Program-made: the position numbers and the translations under genes | Notes under the pieces: generated by a model | Seen by the model: the letters and a program-made list of their open reading frames with translations, nothing else | What the model was told of the DNA's origin: nothing | Database searches by the model: none | Origin: Flavobacterium sp. | GTDB lineage: Bacteria > Bacteroidota > Bacteroidia > Flavobacteriales > Flavobacteriaceae | Length of the DNA stretch: 64,000 nucleotides | Assembly: GCA_052437795.1 (NCBI GenBank) | Contig: JBQVPA010000008.1 | Direction: 5' to 3' (one strand) | Part shown: positions 1-17,831 of the stretch, piece by piece | Position numbering within the stretch: position 1 is the stretch's first letter | How the letters are laid out: each line of letters begins with the position of its first letter

Positions 1-294
1 ATGGAAAGCCTTTTGCAGCAAATAGTAGAAACAGGCAGTACAATTGCAATTCTTGACATTTCGGGAGTGCCTGCTGTTGATACCCTTGTGGCGCAACACC
101 TTATAAAGACCGTTAGCGCGACACGCCTGCTAGGCGCTGAATGTATCATTAGCGGCATACGTCCGGAAATCGCACAGATCGTTGTACACCTGGGCATCGA
201 CCTTTCTAACATCATTACGAAATCGACACTTGCAAGCGCGCTTCAAACCGCATTTGCAATGCTTCAGATACAAGTCAGCAACAAAAGACAATAA
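1..294 (+). CDS. rsbR: RsbR-like STAS-domain stressosome protein, C-terminal part (gene probably starts before the window)
   Basis: STAS signature AILDISGVPAVDTLVAQHLIKTVSATRLLGAECIISGIRPEIAQ; directly upstream of rsbS-rsbT. Confidence 0.85.
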   Translation: MESLLQQIVETGSTIAILDISGVPAVDTLVAQHLIKTVSATRLLGAECIISGIRPEIAQIVVHLGIDLSNIITKSTLASALQTAFAMLQIQVSNKRQ

Positions 295-312
295 TCCACT
301 TACTGATACATT

Positions 313-711
313 ATGGATAGGATACCTATTTTAAAAATGGGCGATTTTCTGCTGGTAACCATACAAGTGGATCTATACGACCAACTGGCTGAAAACCTGG
401 AGACAGACCTGGTCAACTCAGTGAAAAAATTTGATTCGAAAGGCGTACTGATCGATATTTCATCAGTTGCGATAATCGATTCCTTTATGGGAAGGATATT
501 AGGGAATATCGGCGTTATGTCAAAGATAATGGGTGCTGAAGCAGTTATCGTAGGCATGCAGCCAGCAGTGGCGATTACTTTGGTTGAACTGGGACTCACC
601 CTTACCGGCATTACAACAGCATTGAATGTTGAAAAAGGGATGGAACTTTTGCGTTCTAAAATGGGATTAGGTTACGGCCAAAATAATTATCATGACAACA
701 ATACTGAATAG
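313..711 (+). CDS. rsbS: RsbS STAS-domain stressosome antagonist
   Basis: MDRIPILKMGDFLLVTIQVDLYD...GVLIDISSVAIIDSFMGR...VGMQPAVAITLVELG; IIDS carries the conserved phospho-Ser. Confidence 0.9.
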   Translation: MDRIPILKMGDFLLVTIQVDLYDQLAENLETDLVNSVKKFDSKGVLIDISSVAIIDSFMGRILGNIGVMSKIMGAEAVIVGMQPAVAITLVELGLTLTGITTALNVEKGMELLRSKMGLGYGQNNYHDNNTE

Positions 712-1105
712 GGAAGATCTTGTTGTCGCCAGGGAGCAGGATGTTGTGCCTTTGCGCAATAAAGTAAGAGATGCTGCGGTAAAGGTTGGGATGAGCATAT
801 TAAACCAAACCAAACTGATAACTGCGGCAAGCGAATTGGTAAGGAACCTGCTAAAGTATGGAGGGGGTGGCAGTGTTGCCATTGAGACGGTGAACAATGG
901 GCGCGATAACGGTATCCGGTTGGTATTTGCCGACAAGGGCCCGGGCATTGCTGATATAGAGATGGCAATGAAAGACGGTTACAGCACCGGAAAAAGCCTG
1001 GGGCTAGGGCTTCCGGGGACAAAAAGGCTGGTAAATGTTTTTGATATAAGATCGACGGTGGGCGAAGGCACTACCGTTACAATTATAAAATGGAAGAATG
1101 GATAA
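692..1105 (+). CDS. rsbT: RsbT serine/threonine kinase (anti-sigma-factor-type HATPase)
   Basis: QTKLITAASELVRNLLKYGGGG, DKGPGIADIEMAMKDGYSTGKSLGLGLPGTKRLV. Confidence 0.92.
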   Translation: MTTILNREDLVVAREQDVVPLRNKVRDAAVKVGMSILNQTKLITAASELVRNLLKYGGGGSVAIETVNNGRDNGIRLVFADKGPGIADIEMAMKDGYSTGKSLGLGLPGTKRLVNVFDIRSTVGEGTTVTIIKWKNG

Positions 1106-2114
1106 TGCCGCCTTTACAAGCTATAAGATCGAGGACAAAAGTTATGTTTCATTTATAAAGCGGGAGATCCATAACCTTGCGACAGCTAAGGGATATAGTT
1201 CACAAAAAACGGGTGAGATCGATATTATCATATCTGAACTCACCTCGAACCTGACAAAATTCGTTGGGGAGGGGGAACTTTTATACCGCGCTGCAAGCGA
1301 CAGGAATGGTGATTTTTTTGAGATGTACTGCCTTGATGACGGGCAGGGCATTACGAACCTCAACAGGATGCTGCAGGATGGTGAATCCTCAGCAAAAACG
1401 CTGGGGCAGGGACTTGGAGCGGTACATCGGCTAAGTTCGGAATCTTCTGTATATACACTTAAAGGATGGGGGACGGTAGTATATTCAAAAATTTACAAAG
1501 AAGGACCCAAAATCTCAAAAAATAAGTCTCCTGTTGAAGTTACAGGTATAAAGGTCAACATGCCGGGAGAACTGGTTTGTGGGGACGGATTTTTAGTAAA
1601 GGAAATTTACGGGGGCTATATGTTTTTTTTGTGTGACGGATTAGGCCACGGGGAATATGCCAGCGAAGCAGCAAATGAAGCCATTGATGCATTCAGGATA
1701 TGCAGGGAAAAAAGCCCTGCGGAGTTATTGAAGTTCATACACCTACAGGTAAAAAAAACCAGAGGGCTCGTAGGCACGGTCGCGTTTCTTGACCTGAATG
1801 AAAAAAAGTGGAGGATATGCGGGATAGGTAATATCTCGACATCAGTCATTACAGGCCTTGAAGGGAAAAATTACACGCCTTATAACGGTATCATAGGGAT
1901 GAATATCCCACGTACCTTAAATGATTCTGTAGTAGACCTTCAAAAGTACCAAACCCTGATCATGCATAGCGACGGGCTTAAGAACAGGTGGAATATTAAC
2001 AGCCTGCCGGGACTTATGAAGCATCCCCCGGGTATTATCGCTTCATGCCTGTTTAAGGATAACGCCAGGCGCACAGACGATATGTCTGTTCTTGCGGCTA
2101 AAATAAATATATGA
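1098..2114 (+). CDS. HATPase + PP2C/SpoIIE phosphatase fusion (RsbX-like)
   Basis: N-terminal IIISELTSNL...DDGQGI...TLGQGLGAV; C-terminal PP2C motifs CGDG, CDGLGHG, MHSDGL, RTDDMSV. Confidence 0.82.
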   Translation: MDNAAFTSYKIEDKSYVSFIKREIHNLATAKGYSSQKTGEIDIIISELTSNLTKFVGEGELLYRAASDRNGDFFEMYCLDDGQGITNLNRMLQDGESSAKTLGQGLGAVHRLSSESSVYTLKGWGTVVYSKIYKEGPKISKNKSPVEVTGIKVNMPGELVCGDGFLVKEIYGGYMFFLCDGLGHGEYASEAANEAIDAFRICREKSPAELLKFIHLQVKKTRGLVGTVAFLDLNEKKWRICGIGNISTSVITGLEGKNYTPYNGIIGMNIPRTLNDSVVDLQKYQTLIMHSDGLKNRWNINSLPGLMKHPPGIIASCLFKDNARRTDDMSVLAAKINI

Positions 2115-3715
2115 GTATGAAGGAGATCTTACGCATTCGCCTTGACAATGAGATGGACCTCATACTGGCACACAAACGGACAATGAAGTTGGCGGAACTT
2201 TGCGGATTGTTTTCTTCAGCGCAGACGCGATTTGCAACCGCGGTTTCTGAGATCACGCGATGTTCTATTGCTAATGGGCTTGAGTCAAGCCTGACACTGG
2301 GCATACGCACAGTTCCCGGCGGAAAGAAGGAGATCTCTGCAATTATTTATGACAGGATCGATCTGGCAAAGTGCAATCCTGAAGCTATCGCCTACGCCGA
2401 GCGACTTTCAAAAGGCATTTTAATGGACTTTGAGAGTGATGTCTATTCCATCACATTAAACGCAAAAGTACCCTATTCCGGCATCTTATCAGAAGGCAGG
2501 GCAGAATCATTCATCGATTTTTTTAAGAGGGAAGCGCCGCTGTCCCCCTATGATGAGATCCGCAGAAAGAACATACAGCTTATTGAACTTGCAGATAAGT
2601 TAAGTGAGAGTGAAGGCAGCTACAGGCAGCTTACCGATACGCTGCCGCTAATTGTATTCTCTGTCTCTAAATCAGATAAAATTAGTCTGGTCAACAAGAG
2701 CGCAGAAACTATTCTCGGACCAAGTTACAGGGATCTCTCGCCTGCGGTAATTTCACTCATTATATATAAAGATGATATTGAATATGTGGCAAGGGCCTGG
2801 AGTACCGCAAAGAAAAAATATTCGCTGCAATTATTGCAGGCAAGGGTAGTTATGGATGGCAAGGCTATTTGGCATCAAATATCTTTTGTCCCTAATGCGG
2901 ACGACAAAAATGATATAACCGGCTGGATCGTAACGATGGTTAACATTCATGCGCAAAAACTCGTTGAAGAAACCCTTAAAGATAACAAGGAACTCAAAGA
3001 GGCGCAGGATAAGCTAAGATTATACAATGACGAACTTCAAAAAAAGAATAAAGAACTGGAGCAATTCGCTTATGTGGCAAGCCACGATCTGCAGGAACCA
3101 TTAAGAAAGATCAGGAATTTTATTTCACTGGCCCAAAGGAGCAGGTCGGATAACGAGAAGCAAGACCTTTATTACAGCAAGATCAATTCTTCGGCCGAAA
3201 GGATGTCGCATCTTATCACGGATGTATTGGGGTATTCCAAACTTTCTGTCACCTCAGACGAATTTGCTATGGTTGACCTCAATAGTGTGATAGCTGATGT
3301 GATCGGTGATTTTGAGTTTTTGATCAATGAAAAAAATGCAGAGATATCAGTCGGGGAAATGCCTCAATTATCAGGCAGCCCCGTGCAGCTCAGCCAACTA
3401 TTTTACAACCTTTTAGGCAATTCCCTGAAATTTGCAGATGCAGTTCCCAAGATCAGTATATACAATGAAGTCGTTAGTGCTGAAGGCGGCCAATTCAATA
3501 AGATCACGTTATCGGATAACGGTATCGGCATTTCGTCCCAATACATCGAAAAGATCTTTACAATGTTCAAGCGCCTTCATTCCCAAAATGAGTATCCCGG
3601 TACCGGAATAGGTTTGGCCATCTGTAAGAAAATAGCAGAAAACCACTCCGGCAGGATCGAGATGGAAAGTACGCCGGGCGCTGGGACAACAGTTCATGTG
3701 TACCTTCCGGTCTAA
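2111..3715 (+). CDS. Sensor histidine kinase: RsbT-like N-terminal module, PAS, HisKA, HATPase
   Basis: N-terminal QTRFATAVSEITR; H-box YVASHDLQEPLRKI; N-box NLLGNSLKF; DNGIGI; GTGIGLAICKK. Confidence 0.87.
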   Translation: MSMKEILRIRLDNEMDLILAHKRTMKLAELCGLFSSAQTRFATAVSEITRCSIANGLESSLTLGIRTVPGGKKEISAIIYDRIDLAKCNPEAIAYAERLSKGILMDFESDVYSITLNAKVPYSGILSEGRAESFIDFFKREAPLSPYDEIRRKNIQLIELADKLSESEGSYRQLTDTLPLIVFSVSKSDKISLVNKSAETILGPSYRDLSPAVISLIIYKDDIEYVARAWSTAKKKYSLQLLQARVVMDGKAIWHQISFVPNADDKNDITGWIVTMVNIHAQKLVEETLKDNKELKEAQDKLRLYNDELQKKNKELEQFAYVASHDLQEPLRKIRNFISLAQRSRSDNEKQDLYYSKINSSAERMSHLITDVLGYSKLSVTSDEFAMVDLNSVIADVIGDFEFLINEKNAEISVGEMPQLSGSPVQLSQLFYNLLGNSLKFADAVPKISIYNEVVSAEGGQFNKITLSDNGIGISSQYIEKIFTMFKRLHSQNEYPGTGIGLAICKKIAENHSGRIEMESTPGAGTTVHVYLPV

Positions 3716-3720
3716 CAGGT

Positions 3721-6261
3721 TTAAATTTCCCCTTTAAAATGGCGCTTTAAATAAAGTGCTGTCCGGCTTTCCGGACTTTTTGCTATTTGCGCAGGGATTC
3801 CTTGTGCAACGATCTTCCCACCCTTATTGCCAGCGCCGGGCCCAATATCGATAACCCAGTCACTTTGTACGATCACATCCATGTCGTGTTCTACCACGAT
3901 CACAGTATTGCCGGCATCGACCAGTCCCTTTAGCTGTACCATGAGCTTTTCTACGTCAGACGGGTGCAGCCCTGTTGTGGGCTCGTCCATTATGTACAAG
4001 GCATTACCCTGTTGCGCCCGCTGAAGTTCGGTTGCCAGTTTTATGCGCTGCGCTTCGCCACCGGAGAGTTCTGTAGCGGGCTGGCCCAGCCGCAGGTATC
4101 CCAAACCTACCTGCCGAACGACATCGAGGGCATGTGCGACAGGTCTCTCGTTATGAAAGAAGTCATACGCCTCATTTACGGTCATCCCCAATACTTGGGC
4201 TATGTTCCTGCCTTCATATTCCACCTCAAGGGTCTGCGCATTGTATCGTGTACCATGGCAGGTAGGGCAGGGCGAGTAGACACTGGGCAGGAAGAGCAGC
4301 TCGACCATCACGAAGCCTTCTCCCTGGCAATGGGGGCAACGGCCTTTTGCGACATTGAATGAAAATCTCCCGGCATCGTATTTCCTTGATCGTGCCAGTT
4401 TTGTCGCTGCGAATAATTTCCGGATATTGTCAAAAAGGCCAGTATAGGTGGCAAGGTTCGATCTGGGTGTCCTGCCGATCGGTTTTTGGTCGACCACCAC
4501 AAGCCGTTTTATATCTTCAAGGCCTTCTGTAATAGTCCCTCCAAGAGTTTCGATATTTGCCTGCTCTAAAGGGTTTTCATCGGTTTCGGCAGTAGTATCT
4601 ATCGATGCGCCAAGGTGGTTTGCGACCAGTTCGACAAGCACCTGGCTTACCAGTGTGCTTTTCCCGGAACCCGATACCCCTGTAACGCTTGTGAACACGC
4701 CCAAAGGAAGATCTACCGACAAGTCGCTTAGATTATTTTTGGTTACGCCCGTTAATTTAAGCCATCCCTTTGGAACCCTTGTAGCCTTGCCCGCCACTTT
4801 CCTGTCACCGAAAATATAGTGGCGCGTTATCGATCCCTCCACTTTTTTAAGGCCGTCGGGCGGACCGCTATACAGCACCTGCCCTCCCGATTCCCCGGCC
4901 GCAGGGCCAACGTCGACTATCCAGTCGGCATGCCGGATCACATCGATCTCATGCTCAACGACAAACAATGAATTGCCGGATGCCTTAAGCCTGTCCAGCG
5001 ACCGTAATAATGCCTCGGTATCCGCGGGGTGCAGCCCCGCGGATGGCTCGTCCAGGACATACACCACACCGAACAGGTTCGAACGTACCTGGGTAGCAAG
5101 CCGGAGCCGCTGCAATTCGCCCGGCGAAAGGGTAGGGGTGCTGCGTTCGAGGGTAAGATAGCCAAGGCCAAGGTCCAGGATCACGTTCAGCCTGGCCAGC
5201 AGGTCTTCGGCAATGCGATAGGCTACCAGTGTTTTTTCGGGGTGATCCTTATCGGCTTTTGCCAATTGTTCGGACAGGGGTTTTGCGAATGCTGCGAATA
5301 TTCCTGCCATATCCTCTAAAGGCACCCGGCTCATTTCGGCAATATCTAATCCCGCAAAGGTCACCGACAACGATCCTTTACGCAGCCGCTTTCCATTGCA
5401 TAGCGGACATTCGCTGCTTATCATGTATTGGGATACCCGTTTCTTCATAAGCGCGCTCTGCGTATTGGAGAACGTATGCATTACATAGCGCCTTACCCCC
5501 GTGAACGTGCCCATATAATCAGGCGGCATTTTTTTCTTTACTGCCTCCCTTGTCTGTTCCGGGCTGAGTCCCGGGTACACAGGCACTACCGGCTGCTCGT
5601 CGGTAAATAGTATCCAGTCACGGGTCTCTTTGGGCAGATCTTTCCACGGAATATCGACATCGTGGCCCAGGGTTACCAGTATATCCCGCTGGTTTTGCCC
5701 CTGCCAGGCCAGCGGCCATGCAGCAACAGCGCGTTCCCTTATTGTAAGCGAGTCATCGGGTACCATAGATCTCTCGGTCACTTCGTATACTTTGCCCAGG
5801 CCATGGCACTGCGGACAGGCACCTTCGGGCGTGTTGGAAGAGAAGGCTTCAGCATATATTATCGATTGGCCGGGGGGATAATCGCCGGCCCGGGAGTATA
5901 GCATCCTGAGCAGGTTGGACAACGTGGTAACACTGCCTACAGAAGACCGTGTACTCACAGCGCCGCGTTGCTGCTGCAGGGCTACCGCCGGGGGCAGCCC
6001 CTCGATCGAGTCGACCTCAGGTATGGCCATTTGGTTGAACAGCCTCCGGGCGTATGGCGATACCGAATCCAGGTACCTGCGTTGCGCTTCGGCATATAAC
6101 GTACCAAAGGCAAGGGAGGATTTTCCGGAACCGGAAACTCCAGTAAATACCACAAGCGCGTCGCGTGGTATGTCCACATTGATATCCTTGAGGTTATGCT
6201 CGCGTGCGCCATTTACTGTTACAAACCCTGTGAATTCTTTCTTGTTCTTTTCCTTTGTCAT
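3721..6261 (-). CDS. uvrA: UvrA-family ABC ATPase, class II (UvrA2/DrrC-like, appears to lack the UvrB-binding domain)
   Basis: GAREHNLK, two Walker A motifs GVSGSGKS, signatures LSPGELQR and LSGGEAQR, CxxC zinc modules; short segment between SRAG and the first zinc finger; 846 aa. Confidence 0.88.
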
Positions 6262-6420
6262 TGGATAATTTTAGTAATGAGGGGCATTTTTAAACGTACT
6301 GTTCCTCCAATGCTTGCACTGCCACCGGCGGTACTGATATGAATTTGGGCAACCCGGTCACAAAACGATATAAGCGTAGCCGGTAAGCGATCTGGGGCTG
6401 TGGAACCTACTATGCCGGAA

Positions 6421-9400
6421 TCATACTATCGGCAGGAACAGATTAAACGCGGCCCCTTTGCCGGGTACTCCTTCCGCGGTTATAAAGCCATTATGCTTGA
6501 AGGCGATCTTGCTGCAGATAGCCAGTCCGATCCCCGTCCCTTCGAATTTATCCTTACCGTGCAGGCGCTGGAAAGGCTCAAAAATACGTTGTGACTGATC
6601 CTGTGCGAAACCTATACCGTTATCTGTAATACTGATCTTATGATAGCGGGTTTCCGGATCTCCCTCAATATTGCCCTTTTCTGCAATGGCTGCAGTGATC
6701 TTTATAATGGGTGCCTTTTCCGGCGACCGGTATTTTAGTGCATTGCTGACAAGGTTTACAAGCAGCTGTCGCATCAGTAGTGGGTGTGCCGAGATCATGG
6801 GCAGCTTTGCAACTGTAACCGTGGCTTCTGTTGATCGTATCGATTCTGAAAGTTCCTCTGTAACCTCATTAACAAGCGACTCCAGATCAGTATTCTCAAA
6901 ATCTTTTACATCAAGGTTATTCAGGTGCGAATAATTAAGCAGGTCGTCCGTAAGCTGTTGCATCCTGCGTACCGAAACCATGATCCTCTCCAGGTAGGTA
7001 GCAGCTTCTTCAGAGATCGTAGAGCTGCTGTCCTTTAGTATCATCTTCCCGAAGGTATGTATCTTGCGCAGTGGTTCCTGCAGGTCATGGCTGGCGATAT
7101 AATTAAACGTGGTCAATTCCCTGTTGCTCTCGATCAGCTCGCGGTTGTTGTGCTGCAGGGTGATATTTGCAGCCCTTATCTCAGTAATATCCTCTATCGC
7201 CAAAAGCAGCAAAGGTTCGCCAAGTACATCGCTGAGTATCGGCCTTATGTTAAGCAGCATGACCCTTTCCTCTTTGTTGGAAAGGCGCATCTTAAGTTCC
7301 AGCCCCTCTATGGTTACCTTATCCTGCAGTGCCCTCGCAAGCTCTCCTTTTAGATCACCGATATGCCATTGCACATTTTTAAGGTCAAAGATCATCTTGC
7401 CATCGGTGTCCTGCTCATTGGTTTGCAGGTATTTGTAAAAAGCCGCGTTCGCGCTCTTAATGCTGAATTCCTTATTGAGTATCACCAGCGGCTCCCGTAT
7501 GGTCTGTATGATCGCTTCGGCATACAGCCTTGCCGTAGTTAGCTGTTCCTGCCTGTCAATGAGCTCATCATTTATGGTAGTGAGCTCTTCATTGTTGGAG
7601 CGTAATTCTTCTGTTGAAGTCTCAAGTTCCTCATTGAGCGTCTGCAATTCTTCGCTGTTGCTAAGCAGTTCCTCATTGGCGCTTTGCAGTTCTTCGTTGG
7701 CCACTTCCTGCTCCTCGCTCACCTTGCGTATGTCGTGGCGCATCTGCTCGATCTCTGCCTCAAGTTGCTTTATCCTTTCTGACTCCGCGTTTTTGCGTTT
7801 TAAGATAGCCATACCTTCATCTGCTACTAATGGCAGCTTGTGGAATAATATCAGTATATGGCCTTCTTCATTCGCGTTTTCCAACGGAATGACTTCAAGG
7901 CTCACCAGAAAATTCTCTCCTCTTAGAGCCAGTTGCTCCTTCAGTACCGGTTCATTGTCAGTCTTTACCTTTAGCAGGGCAGCACGAAGCTCGAACACGA
8001 GGTCCGGCCGTAGCATTTTGAATATATTAAAATTAGGCTTTCCGGGAGGCTGCGACAGGAACTGGCCCGTCTCTCCATGAAAGTGGATGATCTCTCTTGT
8101 GTTATTTATAATTACGCCTGCGGGAGTATATTTAGTAAATAGCAGCTCATTAGCCTTTCTTTGGAAATCAGGTTCATAAGGTTTCTTCCGGGGCTCGCTT
8201 TGCCTTTCGGTCTGCTCATTTTCAAAACGCTTATAGGGTGCAGGCACAAAGCTTTCCGATGCATTTTTTCGGGCATATATCTTTTGCCCCTTTAATAATG
8301 GCTCGAAAAGGTTAGATGACGTGCCCGCTGTTTCCGACTTTCCTAAGAACAATACGCCATTTGGCCTTAGTGAATAATGGAATGTGCTGAAGGTCTTTTT
8401 TTGCAGGAACGGGTCAAGATAGATCAGCACGTTCCTGCAGCTGATGATATCCATTTTTGCGAATGGAGGGTCTTTGGTAAAGTTATGTACGGCAAAAATG
8501 CACATGTCCCGTATCTCCTTTTTGATATGGTAGGCGCTCTCGATCTTCGTGAAATAGTTAGTAAGCCTTTCTTCTGGGATATTAAGGATCTCCTGCCTGC
8601 TGTAAATGCCTGTCCTTGCTTTAGAAATGACATTTTCAGAAATATCGGTGGCAAATATCTGTACTTTATAATCCTGTATGCGCTCGCCCAGGAATTCATG
8701 AAGGCTTATCGCCATCGAGTAGGCTTCCTCTCCTGTAGAGCATCCTGCGATCCAGACCCTGATGGTCTCGCCGGCCCTCTTATCTTCGATCACCCGGGGA
8801 AAGGCATTTTCGCACAGCATGCTGAATATCTTGCTGTCCCGGAAAAAGTAGCTTACGGGAATAAGGATATCATTAAAAAGCGACAGCTGCTCCTGTTTGT
8901 TCGTGCGCAGGTAGTCGAGGTAGGCTTCGGTATCCTCGCGTTTTGTCATCACCATCCTGCGCGCGATCCTCCGGCGTATCGTGGCCTGCTTATAATGTGT
9001 AAAATCGTTGCCTGTTTTCAGTTTCAGCAGCCTGAGGATGCTTTTGTAAAATTCATCATCTTTAGACGAGAGTATATCATCATCTGCGTAGGCATTACTG
9101 CTTTCATAGGCGGTGTCGAGGTCATGCAGCTTTTGGGGTATCTCTTCAACTTCCAGTATAAAGTCGGCCGCACCTGCCCGTATCGCGCTAAGCGGCATGC
9201 CGTCGTGGGCGGCCGATTCAGGGTTTTGCACAAAAGTAGAGCCCCCCATTTCTTTAATGGTCTTCAGTCCGAGGGTGCCGTCATATCCGGTGCCTGAAAG
9301 TATCACGCCGCGTGCGAATCCCTGGTGTACTTCAGCAAGTGAGTTAAAGAACTGGTCGATCACAAGGTTCAGCTTTTTTCCTGTATCGCGTGGATCAAGC

Positions 9401-9705
9401 TTAAGCTTTCCGTCGTATACGGTAAGCATCTTATTCTCCGGGATAATGTAGATATGGTTGGGCGCGATGTTGATGTCGTCCGTGATCTCATGTACCGGAA
9501 GCTCAGTTTCACCAGCCAGTAATTCTGTCAGGATGCTTTCATGTGCCGGGGCCAGGTGCTGTACCAATACGTAGGCCATGCCGGAATTTGGCGGGATGTT
9601 GCGCAAAAATTTCCGGAAAGCGTCGAGCCCCCCTGCAGATGCACCGATACCCACCACGGGAAAATTTATAGAATGATGTTCGGGTAATGCTTTTGTTGAA
9701 CCCAT
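6421..9705 (-). CDS. CheB methylesterase-CheR methyltransferase-coiled coil-PAS-histidine kinase fusion
   Basis: VGIGASAGGL, VQHL and LSGTGYDG (CheB); FFRD, WIAGCSTGEEAYS and SCRNVLIY (CheR); YIASHDLQEPLRKI and GTGIGLAIC (kinase). Confidence 0.9.
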   Translation of the reverse strand: MGSTKALPEHHSINFPVVGIGASAGGLDAFRKFLRNIPPNSGMAYVLVQHLAPAHESILTELLAGETELPVHEITDDINIAPNHIYIIPENKMLTVYDGKLKLDPRDTGKKLNLVIDQFFNSLAEVHQGFARGVILSGTGYDGTLGLKTIKEMGGSTFVQNPESAAHDGMPLSAIRAGAADFILEVEEIPQKLHDLDTAYESSNAYADDDILSSKDDEFYKSILRLLKLKTGNDFTHYKQATIRRRIARRMVMTKREDTEAYLDYLRTNKQEQLSLFNDILIPVSYFFRDSKIFSMLCENAFPRVIEDKRAGETIRVWIAGCSTGEEAYSMAISLHEFLGERIQDYKVQIFATDISENVISKARTGIYSRQEILNIPEERLTNYFTKIESAYHIKKEIRDMCIFAVHNFTKDPPFAKMDIISCRNVLIYLDPFLQKKTFSTFHYSLRPNGVLFLGKSETAGTSSNLFEPLLKGQKIYARKNASESFVPAPYKRFENEQTERQSEPRKKPYEPDFQRKANELLFTKYTPAGVIINNTREIIHFHGETGQFLSQPPGKPNFNIFKMLRPDLVFELRAALLKVKTDNEPVLKEQLALRGENFLVSLEVIPLENANEEGHILILFHKLPLVADEGMAILKRKNAESERIKQLEAEIEQMRHDIRKVSEEQEVANEELQSANEELLSNSEELQTLNEELETSTEELRSNNEELTTINDELIDRQEQLTTARLYAEAIIQTIREPLVILNKEFSIKSANAAFYKYLQTNEQDTDGKMIFDLKNVQWHIGDLKGELARALQDKVTIEGLELKMRLSNKEERVMLLNIRPILSDVLGEPLLLLAIEDITEIRAANITLQHNNRELIESNRELTTFNYIASHDLQEPLRKIHTFGKMILKDSSSTISEEAATYLERIMVSVRRMQQLTDDLLNYSHLNNLDVKDFENTDLESLVNEVTEELSESIRSTEATVTVAKLPMISAHPLLMRQLLVNLVSNALKYRSPEKAPIIKITAAIAEKGNIEGDPETRYHKISITDNGIGFAQDQSQRIFEPFQRLHGKDKFEGTGIGLAICSKIAFKHNGFITAEGVPGKGAAFNLFLPIV

Positions 9706-9752
9706 AAGGAATTATAGTGATGTGATATTCTGCAGCGTTAGTCAACTGCCTG

Positions 9753-10178
9753 CTACTGCGTATTCGGGTGTTTGGCCATGCTCCAATAGTCAAAAATGAC
9801 CCTGAAGGTATTTTTAACCGTTTCGTAGTCACTGCCTTTCCTGAAAAATCCCTGAACGGTCATTTCGGTAAATGCCTCATTGACATCCTTCTGGTTGGCC
9901 ATGGTGGAGTAAAATACAAAGGGTATGCTTTTTCTACGAAGCTTTGGGTCGCTGTCTATCAGTTTTTTAAATTCCAGCCCGTTGTTACCCGGCAACTTTA
10001 CATCTGAAAATATAATATAAATAGACTTTGCGGTGGTGCTAAGGTATTCAAGGCCCTGTTCGGTCGTTTCAAACCATTGTACCGGATTTTTTATCCCGAG
10101 CTCATCAAAAATGGAAGTGAGCAAATGCCTGTCGTCGGCATCATCCTCAATGATAATTATTTCCCCTGTTTTAGACAT
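9753..10178 (-). CDS. Single-domain response regulator (CheY/Rcp1-like)
   Basis: IIIIEDDADD, FSDVKLPGNNGLE, FYST, FFRKG; start moved to MSKTGE because the longer ORF overlaps a promoter box. Confidence 0.85.
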   Translation of the reverse strand: MSKTGEIIIIEDDADDRHLLTSIFDELGIKNPVQWFETTEQGLEYLSTTAKSIYIIFSDVKLPGNNGLEFKKLIDSDPKLRRKSIPFVFYSTMANQKDVNEAFTEMTVQGFFRKGSDYETVKNTFRVIFDYWSMAKHPNTQ

Positions 10179-10205
10179 AATATAAAGTATAGGATCGATG
10201 AATAA

Positions 10206-10246
10206 CAAATATACCTAATGTATGTCGCATTTCCTTACACAATTTT
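10206..10246 (-). promoter_or_regulatory. Promoter with TGTAA box (AAAATTGTGTAA) and -7 element TATATTTG
   Basis: Box at 10235-10246 (minus), 21 nt gap, then TATATTTG at 10206-10213, which matches the Bacteroidota TAnnTTTG consensus. Confidence 0.6.
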
Positions 10247-10262
10247 GCATAAGTGTACTAAA

Positions 10263-10703
10263 TTAAGGGCTTATCACAAATTCGCTGAGCTGTTTTGGAA
10301 TATGCTGTTCCCAGTCATATGACAATACCTTTGCGATCAGTTTTTCAAGCCCCTCCAGGTCAAAAGGTTTTACCAAGTAGGAACTGGCCCCATATTTAAA
10401 TGCTTTTTTGATATCCGTTGGATCCTGGCTTGTGGAGTAGACAATTACCGGTACGGTATTGAACTTAGGATCTTTTTTAATATTGTCTAATGTTTCCAGC
10501 CCATTCATGACCGGCATGTTAATATCCACAAATATAATATCGGGCTCCGGCTGTCCGTTCTTAAGTTTGGAAACGAGCTCCAGGCCATCATTGGCAACAA
10601 TAAGGTTGCACTTTAATTTGAGCTTGTTCAGCGCGAACTTAAAGAAGTAGACATCGTCCATATCGTCTTCAGCAAGATAGATATTCCGGATAGCAAGTTT
10701 CAT
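10263..10703 (-). CDS. Single-domain response regulator (CheY/Rcp1-like)
   Basis: YLAEDDMDD, IFVDINMPVMNGLE, VYSTS, YLVKP. Confidence 0.9.
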   Translation of the reverse strand: MKLAIRNIYLAEDDMDDVYFFKFALNKLKLKCNLIVANDGLELVSKLKNGQPEPDIIFVDINMPVMNGLETLDNIKKDPKFNTVPVIVYSTSQDPTDIKKAFKYGASSYLVKPFDLEGLEKLIAKVLSYDWEQHIPKQLSEFVISP

Positions 10704-10997
10704 AAGTTAATTATTTAGAAACCTAAAAATAGATCTTAAAAGAATTGACTTACAAATAAGTAGTCCTGATAAAAAATAGATTTGGCATCGGTTGGATCTT
10801 GTAAAGTTAGGTAGATATAAACCCTGCAGCTATTACTTTAACGTAAAATGTTGGTTTACAGTTAAATATTAAAATTTACTTATCGGATGTCGGGCAAAGT
10901 ATAGGCGTTTTGAAAATTCCCATATATTGTTCAAAGCTATATAGTAGACGGTCCTGTTATTTGATATGTTTCGTTCTAAAAAATTAGATCAACGATC

Positions 10998-11037
10998 ATG
11001 CGTGTAAGATTTTTGTATTAAACAATATTTAATTTTT
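10998..11037 (+). promoter_or_regulatory. Candidate TGTAA-box promoter of the araC-response regulator operon
   Basis: CGTGTAA with TGTAA at 11003-11007, 22 nt gap, TAATTTTT at 11030-11037; weaker match than the other copies. Confidence 0.35.
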
Positions 11038-11127
11038 AACACATTGTGTTATTATTATCATAATTGGGAAGCATAGTAGTGAACAACTGTAATGATCTTT
11101 TATATTTACCTGATAAACACACCTATC

Positions 11128-11691
11128 ATGAACCTGCACCTTCGATACAATCTTGACAAGATGTGTCGTGCTGTTTTAACAGAACAGCTTGACAAACTTG
11201 GCTTCCGATACTCGCTTACCGACAGTGCATGCGTATATTTTTACGACCATGTACCTGATGAAGACTATGTCAAACTGCATGAGGCTCTACAGCAATATGG
11301 CATAGAGATACTCGATAACAAAAAGGCTGTAATGGTGCAAAAGGTGAAAGCCATTATTGGAGGAATGCTGGATAATAGCAATGCGCCGCTCATGAAAGTA
11401 TCAGCACACCTGTCAAATGAGCTTGGCGAGAATTACCGTACCATTGCCCAGATATTTAGCGAAACCTGCCACATGACCATTGAGAACTTCATCATCATGT
11501 GCAAGATCGAGCGCGCAAAGCAGCTGCTGATCGCCGAAGCGCTTTCCCTTACCGAGATCTCTTACAAACTCAACTACAGCAGCGTGGCCCATCTTTCCAA
11601 CCAGTTCAAGAAGATCACCGGCCTTACGCCCAGTTCTTTCCAAAAGATAGCCGTAAGCAGGAGGCATTTTAAAACGACCATGTTAAACTAA
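11128..11691 (+). CDS. Short AraC-family transcriptional regulator
   Basis: C-terminal KIERAKQLL...LSLTEISYKLNYSSVAHLSNQFKKITGLTPSSF; start at MNLHLRY preferred. Confidence 0.88.
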   Translation: MNLHLRYNLDKMCRAVLTEQLDKLGFRYSLTDSACVYFYDHVPDEDYVKLHEALQQYGIEILDNKKAVMVQKVKAIIGGMLDNSNAPLMKVSAHLSNELGENYRTIAQIFSETCHMTIENFIIMCKIERAKQLLIAEALSLTEISYKLNYSSVAHLSNQFKKITGLTPSSFQKIAVSRRHFKTTMLN

Positions 11692-11704
11692 ATTACAGGA
11701 ATAT

Positions 11705-12148
11705 ATGTATCTTGATAAACTTCATATTGTACTCGCAGAAGACGATCAGGATGACCGTCTTCTCTTTAATAACGTTTTTAATCATGTAAAGATCAACCAC
11801 ACCCTAAAAATTTGTGAGGATGGTATAGAACTGATGGATCACCTCAGGAATTCCGAAGAGGTTCCTGATATTATTTTCCTGGACCTTACCATGCCGGGCA
11901 AGTCCGGTATCGAATGCCTCAAAGAAATTAAAAAAGATCCAAGGCTTCGCGACATAACCATTGCGATATATTCCACAACTTCTGTAAAGGCAACGATCGA
12001 GCAGGCTTTCATACTCGGGGCCAATGTATTCATCAAAAAGCCTAACGAGTACGATGAGCTTAAAAAAGTATTGACAGAAGTTATCTACATCAACTGGCAG
12101 TACATCACCGAAGGGTTCAATAAAGAACATTTCATGATCAGCTACTAA
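11705..12148 (+). CDS. Single-domain response regulator (CheY/Rcp1-like)
   Basis: VLAEDDQDD, IFLDLTMPGKSGIE, IYSTT, FIKKP; 13 bp after the araC stop. Confidence 0.9.
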   Translation: MYLDKLHIVLAEDDQDDRLLFNNVFNHVKINHTLKICEDGIELMDHLRNSEEVPDIIFLDLTMPGKSGIECLKEIKKDPRLRDITIAIYSTTSVKATIEQAFILGANVFIKKPNEYDELKKVLTEVIYINWQYITEGFNKEHFMISY

Positions 12149-12173
12149 GCAAAATGCAAAATGACCACAACAT

Positions 12174-12206
12174 AAAAGAGAGACCTACATACGGCTCTCT
12201 TTTTTT
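12174..12206 (+). terminator. Intrinsic terminator after the araC-RR operon
   Basis: AAAAGAGAG...CTCTCTTTT stem followed by a T run. Confidence 0.6.
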
Positions 12207-12568
12207 GCTCATACTACTCAGAGGCGGCATTCCCTTGCGACTGCCTTTCCACAGGGTCGTTCGGTATCAGTTTCGCTGTCGGGACCGTATCCAGCCTTCT
12301 CTCTCCATGTCTCCCTGGGCGCCGCCACTGCCCATAGCTATTGTTGAAACAGTCGTCATAGATGGATCATGCAAACAAAAGGTAAAATGATATAAAAGAT
12401 CACGGCTGTGATCTCATAATTTTATAGTAAGTTATCTATGCAAAGGATAGTAGGCTTATATGATTTGTGTTTACTCAGGTTGTTTGGTTATCCCCTGCAC
12501 ACGCGGGGGATATTTTTTTATCCTTCTATGAGATCACGAACTAAAGACCGCCACACTGGCCTAAATGC

Positions 12569-12594
12569 AGAAAGCTTCTGTAAGGAAGCTTTCT
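12569..12594. terminator. Hairpin downstream of the DUF892 gene
   Basis: AGAAAGCTTC-N6-GAAGCTTTCT perfect 10 bp stem. Confidence 0.55.
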
Positions 12595-12620
12595 TTGTTA
12601 TTGGATCTATGTAATTGTAA

Positions 12621-13217
12621 TTATTCCATTTCCTCCTGCATGCCTTCTGCCGTTCCTTCACCTTCGACAGCATCAAGATTGATCGTATTATATGCGGCAT
12701 CGGTAAGTATCACATCCGCTTCTTTTTCCTCGGCCAGGGTTTCCTCCAGCAACGAGGCAACCTCTTCTTCACCAAGGATCTTCGCAAAAGCGACAAGCGT
12801 ACCGTAAGAAGCGATCTCGTAATGCTCGATCTTTTGCGAAGCTGAGATGATGCCTGCATCCCTCACAGGACCCAGCTCGGTATCTTTCATAATGTTTTCG
12901 CCTTCTTTTATCAGGCCTTCCATAGCCTCGCATTTTTTACCGCGGCCGTTTTCGCCAAGCATTTCAAATACCTGCTGCAGGCGCTCCACCTGGCGTTCGG
13001 TCACGGCTAGGTGCTCGTTGATCGCCTCTTTAAGTTTTGGGTCGGAAGCATTGTTCGCCATCTTCGGCAGTGATCTTACCAGTGCCCGCTCAGCATATAC
13101 GATATCTTTAAGCTCATCGATAAAAAGTTCCCTCAGGCCTTCTGCCGCCGAGGATCTTGCAGGAACGGTCCTTTGTCCTTTGCCGTAATTGCTTTTGTTT
13201 TGTGCTGAATTTGCCAT
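12621..13217 (-). CDS. DUF892 / YciE-YciF ferritin-like stress protein (copy 1)
   Basis: LFIDELKDIVYAE, KKCEAMEGLIKEG, RDAGIISASQKIEHYEIASYGTL; start MANSAQ. Confidence 0.9.
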   Translation of the reverse strand: MANSAQNKSNYGKGQRTVPARSSAAEGLRELFIDELKDIVYAERALVRSLPKMANNASDPKLKEAINEHLAVTERQVERLQQVFEMLGENGRGKKCEAMEGLIKEGENIMKDTELGPVRDAGIISASQKIEHYEIASYGTLVAFAKILGEEEVASLLEETLAEEKEADVILTDAAYNTINLDAVEGEGTAEGMQEEME

Positions 13218-13251
13218 AGTTTTTTTATTTTGAATTAGTTGAATACTTGGA

Positions 13252-13731
13252 TCACCTCTTACAATGTTCATACAGAAGGCCCGCTGCCCTGTCTGTTACC
13301 TGAAGGATCATTTCTTCCGGAGCGCCTTTATATACAGTCCTGTCATTTATGGTTCCTGTTGGCGTCACAATAGAAAGGAACATGGTACCCACGGGCTTCT
13401 CGGAAGTTTCACTGCCACCGGCTGTCGTAAGCCCTGTAACGGCAACAGTGACCTTCGAATTAAATAACCGTGCCGCCTGCTTTGCCAACGCTGCCGTTAC
13501 CTCGGCAGACTCGGGTGTATGGTCTTCTATAAGCTTGTGAGGCACATTTAGTATCTGCTCTTTTACAAACACCTCATAGCACGAGATCCCGCCCCGTAAA
13601 ATTTTTCCTGATTCCTCCGTTAGTGCAAATTCCGAACACATCCTGCCGGCCGTAGCGCTCTCAACGAAAGCTATGTTCCAACCCTTTGCCGCGATGGCCG
13701 CGCTGCATCGCTTTATGATCTCTGATGGCAT
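13252..13731 (-). CDS. cinA: CinA C-terminal domain protein (PncC-like NMN deamidase family)
   Basis: IAFVESATAG, ISCYEVFVKEQIL, AVTGLTTAGGSETSEKPVGTMF. Confidence 0.8.
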   Translation of the reverse strand: MPSEIIKRCSAAIAAKGWNIAFVESATAGRMCSEFALTEESGKILRGGISCYEVFVKEQILNVPHKLIEDHTPESAEVTAALAKQAARLFNSKVTVAVTGLTTAGGSETSEKPVGTMFLSIVTPTGTINDRTVYKGAPEEMILQVTDRAAGLLYEHCKR

Positions 13732-13759
13732 ATATACTGCTGTCTTTTTTGGTTCTACT

Positions 13760-13822
13760 CAAAGATACCTGTCCGTTAGGCCGTAGGTTTTACATAACCT
13801 CCCGAACATATTACACGATTTT
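13760..13822 (-). promoter_or_regulatory. cinA-DUF892 promoter with tandem TGTAA boxes
   Basis: TTACA at 13790 and 13811 (21 bp apart; distal box AAAATCGTGTAA on minus), 22 nt gap, TATCTTTG at 13760-13767. Confidence 0.65.
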
Positions 13823-13858
13823 TCTGTGAGGCATCTCTTGAATTGGAACCCCAAAAGG

Positions 13859-14042
13859 GTAGCAGATCTTCTGAAGTATCCAGGACTGTCCGGGATCAGC
13901 ACAAGCGAAAAATATGAAATGGACTACTGGAAAGAGAAGTTCGGCGTTTCGTCCCCACAGCTTTCCGGTCCGGTGCGTGCCGTGGGCAACAATGCAAAAG
14001 ATGTCGAGGTTTTACCTGAAGGAAAAGAAGGGTAAGAAGTGA
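13859..14042 (+). pseudogene. Degenerate DUF3606-family gene
   Basis: EKYEMDYWKEKFGVS..QLSG.VRAVGN motif; no ATG at the expected MAD start (GTA GCA GAT); removing one T in GGTTTTAC restores YLKEKKGKK-stop. Confidence 0.6.
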
Positions 14043-14083
14043 TAATGCAAAAAAGTGCATATGTAACGGGCTTTTTTGCATTA
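14043..14083. terminator. Bidirectional hairpin between the DUF3606 relic and ligD
   Basis: TAATGCAAAAAAG / CTTTTTTGCATTA 13 bp stem. Confidence 0.65.
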
Positions 14084-16111
14084 TTCAGTTAACAGTCCCT
14101 GCGCGAGAGGAAGTGCTTTCTTCATATCAATTCCCTTACCAAGGCTGCCGATAAAAATATCGCCTTCCGACCGGATGCGTGCTACAGCGTTCTGTATCGT
14201 AAAATCCTTCATCTTTAACCCTTTTTTGACTTCTTCCCAATGCAGCGGCATCGATACCGTGGCACCGGGTTTCGGGCGAAGTGAATAGGGGCAGGCGATC
14301 GTTGCACCCGGGCGGTTCTGCAGGAAGTCGAGGTACATTTTTCCTTCCCGGTTCTTTATCTGGCGCTCGGTGCTTGTGAATTCCGGCAATCGTTTATGTA
14401 CGATGGATACAATGAGCTTCCCGAACAATTGCGATTCATCATAAGAGTATTTCGCACCAAGCGGTATGTAGATATGGATGCCTGTCGACCCCGATGTCTT
14501 TACATATCCCGGCACACCAATAGCATCAAGCACCGCCTTAACTTCCTGTGCCGCAATGATGACCTGCTCAAACGTAGTATCCTTGTCAGGATCAAGGTCG
14601 ATAACGCAATAATCAGGGTCATCAGGATGTTTTATGGTGCTAAACCACGGGTTCATCTCTATGCAGCCTAGCGATGCCATGTAAAGCAGTGTTGCCTCAT
14701 CTTTGCCAACGAGGAATTCCTTGTCTTCACCATCGCTCGTAGTATAAGGGTATGTGTTCGCCCACTCCGGTGCTTTGCCTTTTACATCTTTCTGGTAAAA
14801 GCTTTTGCCGTAGATGCCATTGGGGAACCTGTTGAGCGACATGGGCCTGTCCTTAAGGTAAGGCAATATGTAGTCGGCGACCTGGTAGTAATAGTTGAAC
14901 ATATCCCGCTTGGTATATCCTTCTTCCGGCCAGTACACCTTGCTAAGGTTGCTGAATTTCAGGCTGTGCCCATTGATCTTCTTTACCTGCGATGCTTCTG
15001 TGGGGTTCAGCAACGTTTGCCTTCCGGTATCTTTGGGCGCAGTTACCAATGTTGTTTTGTTGCCTTTTTCTTTTCCTTTTGTAAGCTGCTCAGTCGCTGC
15101 CGCGGTTTCCAAAACCACATCGATCGCTTTTTTATCGGCGCGCATCCCTTCAAATGAAGGATGGCGGAAGACCCCGTCTGATGTGATCTCTGTAAAGCTC
15201 ACTTCACATACCAGCTTTGGCTTTAGCCATGTTGCCACGGCTTTTGGTGGGTTAGGACGAAAACGCGAAGGCTTATTGATGTCGGGCTCATATGTAAACG
15301 GCATTGCTGAGGTGATCAGCGGAGCGAACTGCTCCATCATTTCCCTTTGCGCTTTTGCGGTAAAGCCGGTACCTACTTTACCCACATATTCTAATTTTCC
15401 ATTGTTATGGACACCGAGCAGCAAGGAACTGAATAACTTATTTGTACCCTCATTTTTAGTGAATCCCCCAATAACGACTTCCTGCCTTTGGTTCACCTTG
15501 ATCTTCAGCCAATCCCTGGAGCGGCTGTCGGGAGAGTAAACGCTCGTCAGTTTCTTGGCCATGATCCCTTCCAGCCCCATCTTTTGCGCGGCTTCATAAA
15601 AGTCAAGGCCTCCGGCGGTAAATACCTGGCTCATCCGTATGCGGTCATCGGTCGCAGGCAGTATTTCCTTAAGGAGCGCCTGGCGCTCCGACAGTGGCAG
15701 GGCCATAACATCTTTCCCGTCATACCACAACAGGTCGAAGGCGTAGTAAACAAGGTCGCCGTCGGCTTCGCTCCGCCAGTTCTGCAATGCCCCAAAATTG
15801 GCTTTACCATCTTTATTGACTACCAGGATCTCTCCGTCTAGTACAGCGTTGATGCCAAGTTTAGCCATTGCCGAAACTATGGGATAGTATTTTTCGGTAA
15901 AGGGCTTGTTGTTGCGTGATGTAATTTCAACTGCTCCGTCATTGACATACGCCAGCGCCCTGTAACCGTCCCATTTTACTTCATAAGACCAGTTGGAGTC
16001 ATCGAAAGGCTCATTGACCAGCGTAGCAAGCATAGGCTTGACACCGGCAAGCATTTTAGAGGGTTTGTGGGCCGACTTGGGTTTTCCGGGAGATGTTTCT
16101 TTTTTGATCAC
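14081..16111 (-). CDS. ligD: NHEJ DNA ligase D (ligase + polymerase domains, no phosphoesterase domain recognised)
   Basis: YEVKWDGYR adenylation motif, EGIMAK, WLKIK, FRHPSF; polymerase domain with LSKVYWP, IDLDP, KTSGSTGIHI, YLDFLQN, PYSLRP. Confidence 0.92.
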   Translation of the reverse strand: MIKKETSPGKPKSAHKPSKMLAGVKPMLATLVNEPFDDSNWSYEVKWDGYRALAYVNDGAVEITSRNNKPFTEKYYPIVSAMAKLGINAVLDGEILVVNKDGKANFGALQNWRSEADGDLVYYAFDLLWYDGKDVMALPLSERQALLKEILPATDDRIRMSQVFTAGGLDFYEAAQKMGLEGIMAKKLTSVYSPDSRSRDWLKIKVNQRQEVVIGGFTKNEGTNKLFSSLLLGVHNNGKLEYVGKVGTGFTAKAQREMMEQFAPLITSAMPFTYEPDINKPSRFRPNPPKAVATWLKPKLVCEVSFTEITSDGVFRHPSFEGMRADKKAIDVVLETAAATEQLTKGKEKGNKTTLVTAPKDTGRQTLLNPTEASQVKKINGHSLKFSNLSKVYWPEEGYTKRDMFNYYYQVADYILPYLKDRPMSLNRFPNGIYGKSFYQKDVKGKAPEWANTYPYTTSDGEDKEFLVGKDEATLLYMASLGCIEMNPWFSTIKHPDDPDYCVIDLDPDKDTTFEQVIIAAQEVKAVLDAIGVPGYVKTSGSTGIHIYIPLGAKYSYDESQLFGKLIVSIVHKRLPEFTSTERQIKNREGKMYLDFLQNRPGATIACPYSLRPKPGATVSMPLHWEEVKKGLKMKDFTIQNAVARIRSEGDIFIGSLGKGIDMKKALPLAQGLLTE

Positions 16112-16143
16112 GGCTTACTATTTGAATTTGAAATACAGGTACA

Positions 16144-16314
16144 TTATTCTTGTTCATCGAAAAACTCACGGGCACGTTTAAGCCCGGTCGCTATAGCGAT
16201 CCCTTCTTCAACACCTTCTTTCAAAAGGGCATTCGCGATCTCTACTGCCTTTTCCCTTAGGTATTCAGGCTGGTTCTTATAGGCTGGCGGATAGTCGCCG
16301 TTGTACCAGGGCAT
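16144..16314 (-). CDS. 56-aa small protein resembling the N-terminus of Bacillus YdaT general-stress protein (absent from the ORF track)
   Basis: Manual translation MPWYNGDYPPAYKNQPEYLREKAVEIANALLKEGVEEGIAIATGLKRAREFFDEQE; ATG lies 3 nt after the upstream stop. Confidence 0.75.
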   Translation of the reverse strand: MPWYNGDYPPAYKNQPEYLREKAVEIANALLKEGVEEGIAIATGLKRAREFFDEQE

Positions 16315-16317
16315 GGC

Positions 16318-17082: not shown

Positions 17083-17087
17083 TGTGA

Positions 17088-17591: not shown

Positions 17592-17831
17592 TGTATGTTA
17601 TTTATGTTTATTATTATAAGTGTAACTCATTTCGGTTTAGTGAAATAAAAGCAACATCCAATTTACGATCTCTATTTTTTAAGTATGGTAAATTTTATTT
17701 AAAGTTTTTTACATCCTGCGAACACATTTGATTCTAATAATATAATAAATGTTCGCATATTTTTATGTATACTAATAAAAATCAAATAGTTATGTGTGTT
17801 ATTGACAGGATGTCGAAAATCGTCAGAAGGT

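Follow-up and report, generated by a model that had tools for sequence, protein, structure and literature searches.

The window analysed here, a 64,000-nt stretch of a Flavobacterium sp. genome (G000:C8:8422-72421, on a contig of 78.9 kb in a genome of 4.06 Mb that is 99.98% complete), opens with five + strand genes at positions 1-3715: the 3′ end of rsbR, rsbS, rsbT, a gene coding for a GHKL domain joined to an RsbX-like PP2C domain, and a gene for a PAS-HisKA histidine kinase. The original prediction, made from the sequence letters, had named the same genes in this order, and all five lie where it placed them. The near homologues of the genome's proteins come from Flavobacterium. By its gene content, the operon is an RsbRSTX-type stressosome module with a cytoplasmic histidine kinase as its output. 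The main subject of this report is HKN, the first ~140 residues of that kinase, which is an RsbT homologue without ATP boxes and may connect the stressosome to a two-component pathway; the N-terminal GHKL domain of the phosphatase, referred to as XN, is likewise RsbT-like.

For comparison, one genome per species was scanned for homologous loci; more than 415 loci encode relatives of HKN, and 80 were kept. The part of rsbR that lies within the window (1..294, +) codes for its STAS domain, while the full gene of 278 aa begins at C8:7879, 543 nt before the window, and combines an RsbRD_N sensor with the STAS domain (Pfam, 1e-16 and 1.4e-14, respectively). The phospho-acceptor D208-T209 of RsbR is kept as D-S/T in 71 loci. 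The scaffold protein RsbS (313..711, +; 132 aa) is a single STAS domain (Pfam, 4e-8), the acceptor D56-S57 of which lies within a DSFMGRI block with a conservation of 95% or more over 72 loci. RsbT (692..1105, +; 137 aa) is a GHKL Ser/Thr switch kinase (HATPase_c 7e-12, HATPase_c_2 1e-7), and its N-box SELVRN, G1 box DKGPGI and G2 box GLGLPG are intact and conserved in 75 loci. A spacing of 18 nt separates rsbR from rsbS and is followed by overlaps of 20, 8 and 4 nt between the successive genes. The last of these, between the phosphatase and kinase genes, is an ATGA, which suggests translational coupling and an equal dosage of the two proteins.

The phosphatase gene (1098..2114, +) codes for a 338-aa protein with HATPase_c_2 and SpoIIE/PP2C domains in Pfam and is the sole PP2C/SpoIIE gene found in a search that, like those for STAS, RsbU_N, GHKL and sigma-factor genes below, covered the whole genome. 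The PP2C half (1536..2114, +; SpoIIE 2e-8) is of the RsbX type, with Moorella MtX (3zt9, 1.4e-16) and B. subtilis RsbX (3w40, 3e-9) as its best sequence matches in the PDB and with CGDG, DGLGHG, SDG and TDDMSV as conserved motifs of the metal site. XN (1098..1502, +) matches HATPase_c_2 weakly (24.6 bits, below the cut-off) and is related to RsbT by BLASTP (E 4e-12) and by hhalign (probability 99.7%), in agreement with the original prediction that the phosphatase starts with an RsbT-like domain. The prediction had further counted XN among its pseudo-RsbT domains, a view that has to be given up because all three ATP boxes (E..SN, DDGQG and GQGLG for N, G1 and G2) are retained, and they are conserved in 69 loci. 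In one of the related loci, L051, the phosphatase N-domain (5997-6386) is spread over two frames (5997-6185 and 6219-6386), possibly owing to a frameshift or to an assembly error in a metagenome-assembled genome.

The relationship of HKN (residues 1-140 of the kinase; 2111..2530, +) to RsbT is more distant. No Pfam family matches residues 1-160 of the kinase. The two peptides quoted in the original prediction are both found in the sequence, and pairwise BLASTP between HKN and RsbT gives 29% over 59 aa with an E of 0.002, a resemblance so weak that it would be marginal if taken alone. When profiles of 76 HKN and 75 RsbT sequences are compared with hhalign, the two families align over 107 columns with a probability of 97.1% (E 4.9e-11) and a gap at the ATP lid; the corresponding probability for HKN and XN is 37%. 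The AlphaFold2 model of HKN, computed from an 81-row alignment (pLDDT 91.8), has the topology beta-alpha-alpha-beta-beta-alpha-beta-beta, and its top Foldseek matches in the PDB are UsfX, RsbW and SpoIIAB (E 7e-5 to 1e-3, target-normalised TM 0.63-0.79), several of the matched structures having been solved in complex with a STAS partner. With phmmer, a complete set of 1.84 billion cluster representatives was scanned, and 157 relatives of HKN were found, in which the domain is always N-terminal. The nearer relatives look like the Flavobacterium protein, while the more distant ones bear SE..RN, DxGxG and GxGxG boxes, and PF13581 is matched by 31 of 75 full-length relatives. Within the genome, the HKN profile retrieves the kinase itself and RsbT only. 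Sequence searches of the PDB gave chance matches only for the single HKN sequence and marginal ones for the profile (RsbW domain of Rv1364c, E 0.04; RsbW, E 0.4), and for this reason the homology rests on the profile-profile comparison, the intermediate sequences and the fold.

In alignment A2, HKN has SEITRC in place of SE..RN and YDRID in place of DxGxG, there is no G2 box, and the ~14 residues between G1 and G2 that make up the ATP lid are deleted. Taken together, the profile-profile match, the predicted fold and the aligned motifs uphold the earlier claim that the N-terminus of the kinase is RsbT-like and devoid of G1 and G2. Because HKN has lost all three ATP boxes together with the lid, while RsbT and XN keep their boxes in every locus examined, HKN is, as judged from sequence and predicted structure, a pseudokinase, that is, an RsbT paralogue that has kept the fold and is predicted to be non-catalytic. 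A maximum-likelihood tree of 75 HKN representatives (50% identity) with samples of RsbT and XN places the box-less HKNs, a few peripheral ones excepted, in a single, well-supported clade (49 rows, 100/99), which is nested among box-bearing HKNs, and RsbT is closer than XN to HKN in the tree.

The pseudokinase domain occurs in a nearly fixed setting. In the Bacteroidota loci the genes follow the order rsbR-rsbS-rsbT-X-HK on one strand in 72 of 80 cases, and another six are interrupted by contig ends and consistent with this order as far as the sequence extends. The two exceptions are L026, which has none of the upstream genes, and L046 of Nibrella saemangeumensis, where rsbR (5693-6559) and rsbS (6572-6958) are followed by a kinase gene with a box-less HKN (7004-8698), with no rsbT or phosphatase gene adjoining; a complete rsbR-rsbS-rsbT-X-HK module is found on a separate contig of the same genome (L083). 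Eight motif-intact relatives of HKN were also looked up, six of which lie in the same five-gene operon, a separate rsbT included, and two of which (L087 and L091), peripheral to the family, stand alone with no stressosome genes. A natural operon in which a motif-intact HKN replaces rsbT was thus not found among them, the only rsbT-less unit being that of Nibrella.

The few kinases of this family that lack stressosome genes (L087 and L091) or upstream genes altogether (L026), together with the kinase's own PAS domain, would fit an explanation in which HKN is a decayed domain, structurally retained for dimerisation or stability and not connected to stressosome signalling, the PAS domain regulates the kinase, and the operon linkage reflects co-expression only. 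The conservation of HKN argues otherwise: 12 columns are invariant and 20 nearly so over 81 sequences from four orders, after catalysis was apparently lost, and the conserved residues, which include D16 and the stretch Q38-T39-x-x-A42-T43-A44-x-S46-E47-x-x-R50, are those that HKN has in common with RsbT. Given also the near-obligate synteny with rsbRST-X, this explanation appears to be the least probable of those considered here. On the pattern of its columns, HKN is under selection, yet predicted to be non-catalytic.

The remainder of the 534-aa PAS-HisKA-HATPase_c kinase (2111..3715, +) follows in the order of a linker helix (residues 146-177; 2546..2641, +), defined by the full-length AlphaFold2 model and by invariant columns, a PAS domain (residues 180-278; 2648..2944, +), recognised by weak Pfam matches to PAS_9 and PAS and by its predicted PAS fold, a signalling helix and DHp domain (2945..3250, +; HisKA 6e-12), and a catalytic HATPase_c (CA) domain with intact N, G1 and G2 boxes (3266..3715, +; 2.2e-24). 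The phospho-acceptor His325 (3083-3085, H-box ASHDLQEPLRKI) is invariant in 54 sequences, as are N433, N437, D469, G471, G473, G497, G499 and G501 of the CA domain. In the full-length model (mean pLDDT 84.7) HKN, the helix 146-177, the PAS domain, a continuous helix 279-325 that leads to His325, the second DHp helix and the CA domain succeed one another; as modelled, the layout is the usual one, in which a dimeric N-terminal module would steer the kinase via helical linkers.

The linker helix, which connects HKN to PAS, begins with an S145-P-Y147-(D/E)-E-I-K/R-x-K-N motif, and S145-P-Y147 is invariant in the HKN-bearing kinases. An invariant serine at the hinge before a 32-residue helix, with two motif-intact Ser/Thr kinase domains encoded immediately upstream, could point to an enzymatic coupling, in which RsbT, or perhaps XN, phosphorylates a Ser/Thr residue of the kinase such as S145 and HKN merely serves as a recognition or substrate-presenting scaffold. 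We know of no precedent for an RsbT-family kinase acting on non-STAS substrates, S145 is equally conserved where HKN is motif-intact, and the need of the kinase for an RsbT-fold domain would be left unexplained. Even with the transient phosphorylation that has been proposed for Vibrio (PMC9237108), such a coupling seems to have only a slim chance of being correct, if a slightly better one than the decay of the domain.

In 43 of 76 related loci the operon has a gene for a stand-alone receiver as its immediate neighbour, after the kinase gene in 34 and before rsbR in 10, and this gene could encode the partner to which the kinase passes its phosphoryl group. No receiver gene adjoins the operon in this genome, where three stand-alone receivers are found 6-8 kb downstream. 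Two receivers of the window are candidate cognate response regulators of the kinase, namely RR2 (10263..10703, -; Pfam Response_reg 1e-21) and, as a second candidate, RR3 (11705..12148, +), the gene of which starts 13 nt after that of an AraC-type regulator. The same region contains a gene for a 1094-aa CheB-CheR-PAS-HisKA-HATPase_c kinase (6421-9705, -), which is followed by receivers at 9753-10208 (-) and 10263-10703 (-). The H-box region of this CheB-CheR fusion kinase resembles that of the stressosome-linked kinase, and a similar CheB-CheR kinase is encoded near the operon in L061.

Other outlets for the stressosome are not apparent in the genome. The only STAS genes are rsbR and rsbS, and no SulP-type transporter STAS was detected; RsbU_N (PF08673) has no match at E <= 0.1, with a control in which it is detected in B. 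subtilis; no further small GHKL protein that could be an RsbW candidate is retrieved from the genome by the RsbT, XN and HKN profiles; and the best match to the SigB/F/G-type sigma model TIGR02980, at 109 bits against a cut-off of 234, is the primary sigma factor. The statement of the original prediction that there is no sigma factor nearby is correct for the entire 78.9-kb contig, which carries none of the 15 sigma-70-family genes of the genome, and the canonical sigB/rsbV/rsbW partner switch, which by the prediction's own account would speak against a kinase output, was not found in the genome either. As there is neither an RsbV/RsbW/SigB nor an RsbU_N route, the adjacent and translationally coupled kinase is the obvious output.

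STAS domains are the established partners of the fold of HKN, as in the pairs RsbT-RsbS, RsbW-RsbV and SpoIIAB-SpoIIAA. We tentatively favour a writer-eraser-reader model, in which the kinase would be anchored through HKN to the STAS lattice formed by RsbR and RsbS, and regard it as quite possible, although somewhat short of an even chance. According to the model, RsbT, the RsbT-type XN and HKN would all address the same RsbR/RsbS lattice. RsbT would write phosphorylation on RsbS and RsbR in response to the RsbR sensor, while XN would carry the PP2C domain to its phospho-STAS substrates, where the phosphatase would erase it. HKN would be a non-catalytic reader that keeps the kinase dimer attached to STAS sites in their unphosphorylated state. 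Upon phosphorylation of the STAS domains or their occupancy by RsbT, HKN would be released or would alter its geometry, a change that could pass through the linker helix, the PAS domain and the signalling helix and switch the autophosphorylation of His325. From there, the phosphoryl group would be passed to a stand-alone receiver protein for the control of stress genes.

Several considerations speak for a STAS partner. First, in addition to being the established partner of the fold, STAS domains occur in this genome in RsbR and RsbS alone, and no RsbU_N, RsbV, RsbW or SigB is available as an alternative receiver. Next, the basal relatives with a motif-intact HKN in the same operon imply that the ancestral HKN was a complete RsbT-like kinase, the substrate of which would be a STAS domain. 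Also, the phosphatase, which has phospho-STAS substrates, bears a domain of the same kind. Finally, the Nibrella rsbR-rsbS-HK unit lacks an adjoining rsbT or phosphatase, which argues for the STAS proteins as the partners of its kinase.

A number of observations weigh against the docking of HKN on STAS domains. The ATP lid contributes to the STAS interface when SpoIIAB is bound to SpoIIAA and RsbW to RsbV, and since the lid of HKN is deleted, canonical docking on STAS may be impossible. HKN has also evolved ~3 times faster than RsbT or RsbS, with a mean distance of 1.01 compared to 0.37 for RsbT and 0.24 for RsbS. In a mirror-tree style test over 67 operons, based on partial correlations of pairwise distances and confounded by rate class and saturation, the known pairs are recovered (R-S +0.55, R-T +0.45, S-T +0.30), while the partial correlation is ~0.06 for HKN-RsbS and -0.20 for HKN-RsbR, values that carry the rate confounding of the test. 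As for the Nibrella unit, RsbT could act in trans from the complete module on the other contig. At the receiver end of the pathway, a profile of the operon-flanking receivers gives similar scores to four stand-alone receivers, of which two lie in the window and the others at C1:727976-728419 and C6:15311-15742, and thus singles out no cognate regulator.

The couplings that HKN does show in the distance test, with the same rate confounding, are to the kinase core, XN and PP2C only. The correlations with XN (raw 0.65, partial 0.38) and PP2C (raw 0.68, partial 0.29) are the strongest that HKN has with another protein, the kinase and phosphatase genes are always adjacent and overlap here by the 4 nt of the ATGA, and it could be that HKN pairs with XN, so that the kinase and the phosphatase form one complex in which the pseudokinase regulates the phosphatase or is regulated by it, in place of a direct reading of the STAS lattice or of RsbT. 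Since fast evolution is common to XN, PP2C, HKN and the kinase core, and slow evolution to R, S and T, the correlations may reflect nothing but rate class. HKN and XN also resemble each other little at the profile level, and the Nibrella kinase unit has no adjacent phosphatase, so a pairing of HKN with XN is regarded as improbable, though less so than the enzymatic coupling.

The serious rival to docking on the STAS lattice is the capture of free RsbT, much as the original prediction had it. Stress would free RsbT from the stressosome, and RsbT would then bind HKN by heterodimerisation of GHKL paralogues and switch the kinase via the helical linker, as it orders the linker of RsbU through RsbU_N. 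In Bacillus the message is carried by free RsbT, and a Moorella cyclase is controlled by RsbT together with RsbU_N (PMC12143880). A pair of paralogues is plausible as SpoIIAB and RsbW-type kinases are, by textbook knowledge, homodimers, and docking has led others to propose that RsbT molecules touch one another at the surface of the stressosome (PMC9237128). Within our data, HKN is nearer to RsbT than to XN both by hhalign and in the tree, the most conserved stretch of HKN, helices 1-2, is its most RsbT-like part, and a separate rsbT is present in every complete operon, those with a motif-intact HKN included. On the other hand, a domain needed solely for binding RsbT would leave the ancestral motif-intact kinase unexplained, the Nibrella rsbR-rsbS-HK unit lacks rsbT, and HKN and RsbT have a partial correlation of distances of -0.21, albeit in a weak and confounded test. 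Binding of the Vibrio RsbT to the downstream kinase was not detected (PMC9237108), a kinase that is known here from its published description alone. We therefore favour STAS docking over RsbT capture, and consider the latter rather unlikely but well ahead of the other alternatives.

If HKN does read the STAS lattice, it might, besides RsbU_N, stand for another general type of receiver for stressosome output, an RsbT-derived pseudokinase by which the effector enzyme itself is brought to the lattice, with writer, eraser and reader paralogues competing for the same STAS sites and no diffusible RsbT messenger. We look upon this generalisation as doubtful, if a little less so than RsbT capture; if true, the stressosome would be a self-contained phosphorylation-state computer that feeds a two-component pathway.

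Stressosome modules with two-component outputs have been described before. Vibrio vulnificus and V. brasiliensis have RsbRSTX together with the two-component proteins VvD1 and VvD2 (Heinz et al. 2022, PMC9237108; Jia et al. 2016, PMC4976288), and RSTX modules with a two-component output have been noted in Bacteroidetes, Cyanobacteria and other groups, most of the downstream proteins being without RsbU_N and the link between RsbT and the kinase being stated as unknown (PMC9237108). As in Flavobacterium, the Vibrio genes are in the order rsbR-rsbS-rsbT-rsbX and are followed by that of a PAS-containing sensor kinase, with no RsbU, RsbV, RsbW or SigB. The two systems differ in the sensor, which is a haem globin in the Vibrio RsbR and an RsbRD_N domain here, and in the phosphatase, which is described as a single-domain PP2C in Vibrio and carries a motif-intact RsbT-like domain in Flavobacterium. 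The RsbT-derived pseudokinase domain of the Flavobacterium kinase also has no counterpart described in PMC9237108, VvD1 being compared by its description only, and binding between VvRsbT and VvD1 was not detected in that study. An RSTX module with a kinase output is thus already known, and the pseudo-RsbT connector may be the new part. The original prediction had called the mechanism uncharacterised in Bacteroidota, which is fair as regards the mechanism itself and too broad as regards the RsbRSTX design with its two-component output, already published with Bacteroidetes included. Full-text literature searches on the stressosome of Bacteroidetes returned nothing specific, and no paper was found on an RsbT-fold pseudokinase on an output kinase or on an RsbT-like domain on an RsbX-type phosphatase, although a description in the review of Pane-Farre et al. 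2005, the first catalogue of such modules, is possible.

With the sigma-B cascade of Bacillus subtilis and Listeria, the Flavobacterium operon has in common the acceptor residues and kinase boxes of RsbR, RsbS and RsbT and an RsbX-type reset phosphatase. In contrast, the Flavobacterium genome is without RsbU_N, a second STAS/kinase pair and a SigB-type sigma factor, the output is a histidine kinase, and the phosphatase, encoded immediately after rsbT, is a fusion with a GHKL domain. A closer analogy is offered by outputs fused to RsbU_N. MtG of Moorella thermoacetica, said to have been described by Quin and colleagues in 2012, is reportedly an RsbU_N-GAF-GGDEF protein. Proteobacterial RsbU_N-histidine kinases are also on record (Ho & Bradshaw 2025, PMC12143880). 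These outputs resemble the Flavobacterium kinase in that an N-terminal stressosome-addressing domain and a helical linker precede a dimeric signalling enzyme encoded after RST(X), but their four-helix RsbU_N binds RsbT, whereas the domain in Flavobacterium is a GHKL-fold paralogue of RsbT, PF08673 being absent from the genome.

Among the structures, SpoIIAB (1th8/1til), RsbW (6m36/6m37) and UsfX (8ih8/8jzt) are the best matches of HKN and have the Bergerat-type topology in common with it; while their ligands are ATP, a STAS antagonist and a sigma factor, HKN is without boxes and lid, is fused to a histidine kinase and has no cognate sigma in the genome. M. tuberculosis Rv1364c (PAS-PP2C-RsbW-RsbV, 3ke6), a weak profile and fold match of HKN, resembles the operon phosphatase in having a PP2C and an RsbW-type GHKL domain in one polypeptide, but the PP2C precedes the kinase domain, the reverse of the order seen here, and Rv1364c belongs to a SigF partner switch and not to a stressosome.

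Though stressosomes span many phyla, the outputs that are understood are the RsbT-RsbU-sigma B route of Bacillus and Listeria and the RsbU_N fusions only. The pseudo-RsbT kinase suggests a testable answer to the question of how stressosomes without a sigma-B cascade signal. HKN makes the link between RSTX and the kinase concrete, as its partner can be sought in RsbS, RsbR, RsbT or the phosphatase and its behaviour in a dependence on STAS phosphorylation, and it would exemplify a bacterial GHKL pseudokinase kept by selection as a signalling adaptor.

The distribution of HKN is patchy, with the domain found in five of 301 sampled Bacteroidota genomes, in three of 143 genera and in three of 12 genomes of its own genus. 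In Sediminibacterium roseum (L057), a second rsbR-rsbS-rsbT set stands in tandem directly upstream of the five-gene module (2634-4273 and 4347-7002). Upstream of the window (L002, 5439-7670), a gene for a 743-aa protein with no significant Pfam match lies on the same strand 209 nt before rsbR; it is not kept beside the operon in the other loci.

Downstream of the operon in the window, general-stress-type genes are found at 3721-20081, coding for a UvrA paralogue, a DUF892 protein, CinA, LigD (ligase and primase-polymerase), an ankyrin-repeat protein and a large KatE-type catalase. The gene for the 846-aa UvrA paralogue is convergent with the operon and lies 5 nt past the kinase stop codon, and genes for DUF892 and KatE are likewise found beside the operon in L051. 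With KatE, DUF892, LigD and the UvrA paralogue as its neighbours, the operon may be the entry to a sigma-B-independent general stress response in Bacteroidota. The 12-mer AAAATCRTGTAA has five copies in the genome, at 13811, 17832, 22055 and 23006 of the window and at G000:C1:577651. The four copies in the window span 9.2 kb and stand before stress-type genes, in the katE region and elsewhere, a clustering that indicates a set of co-regulated genes in the vicinity of the stressosome operon.

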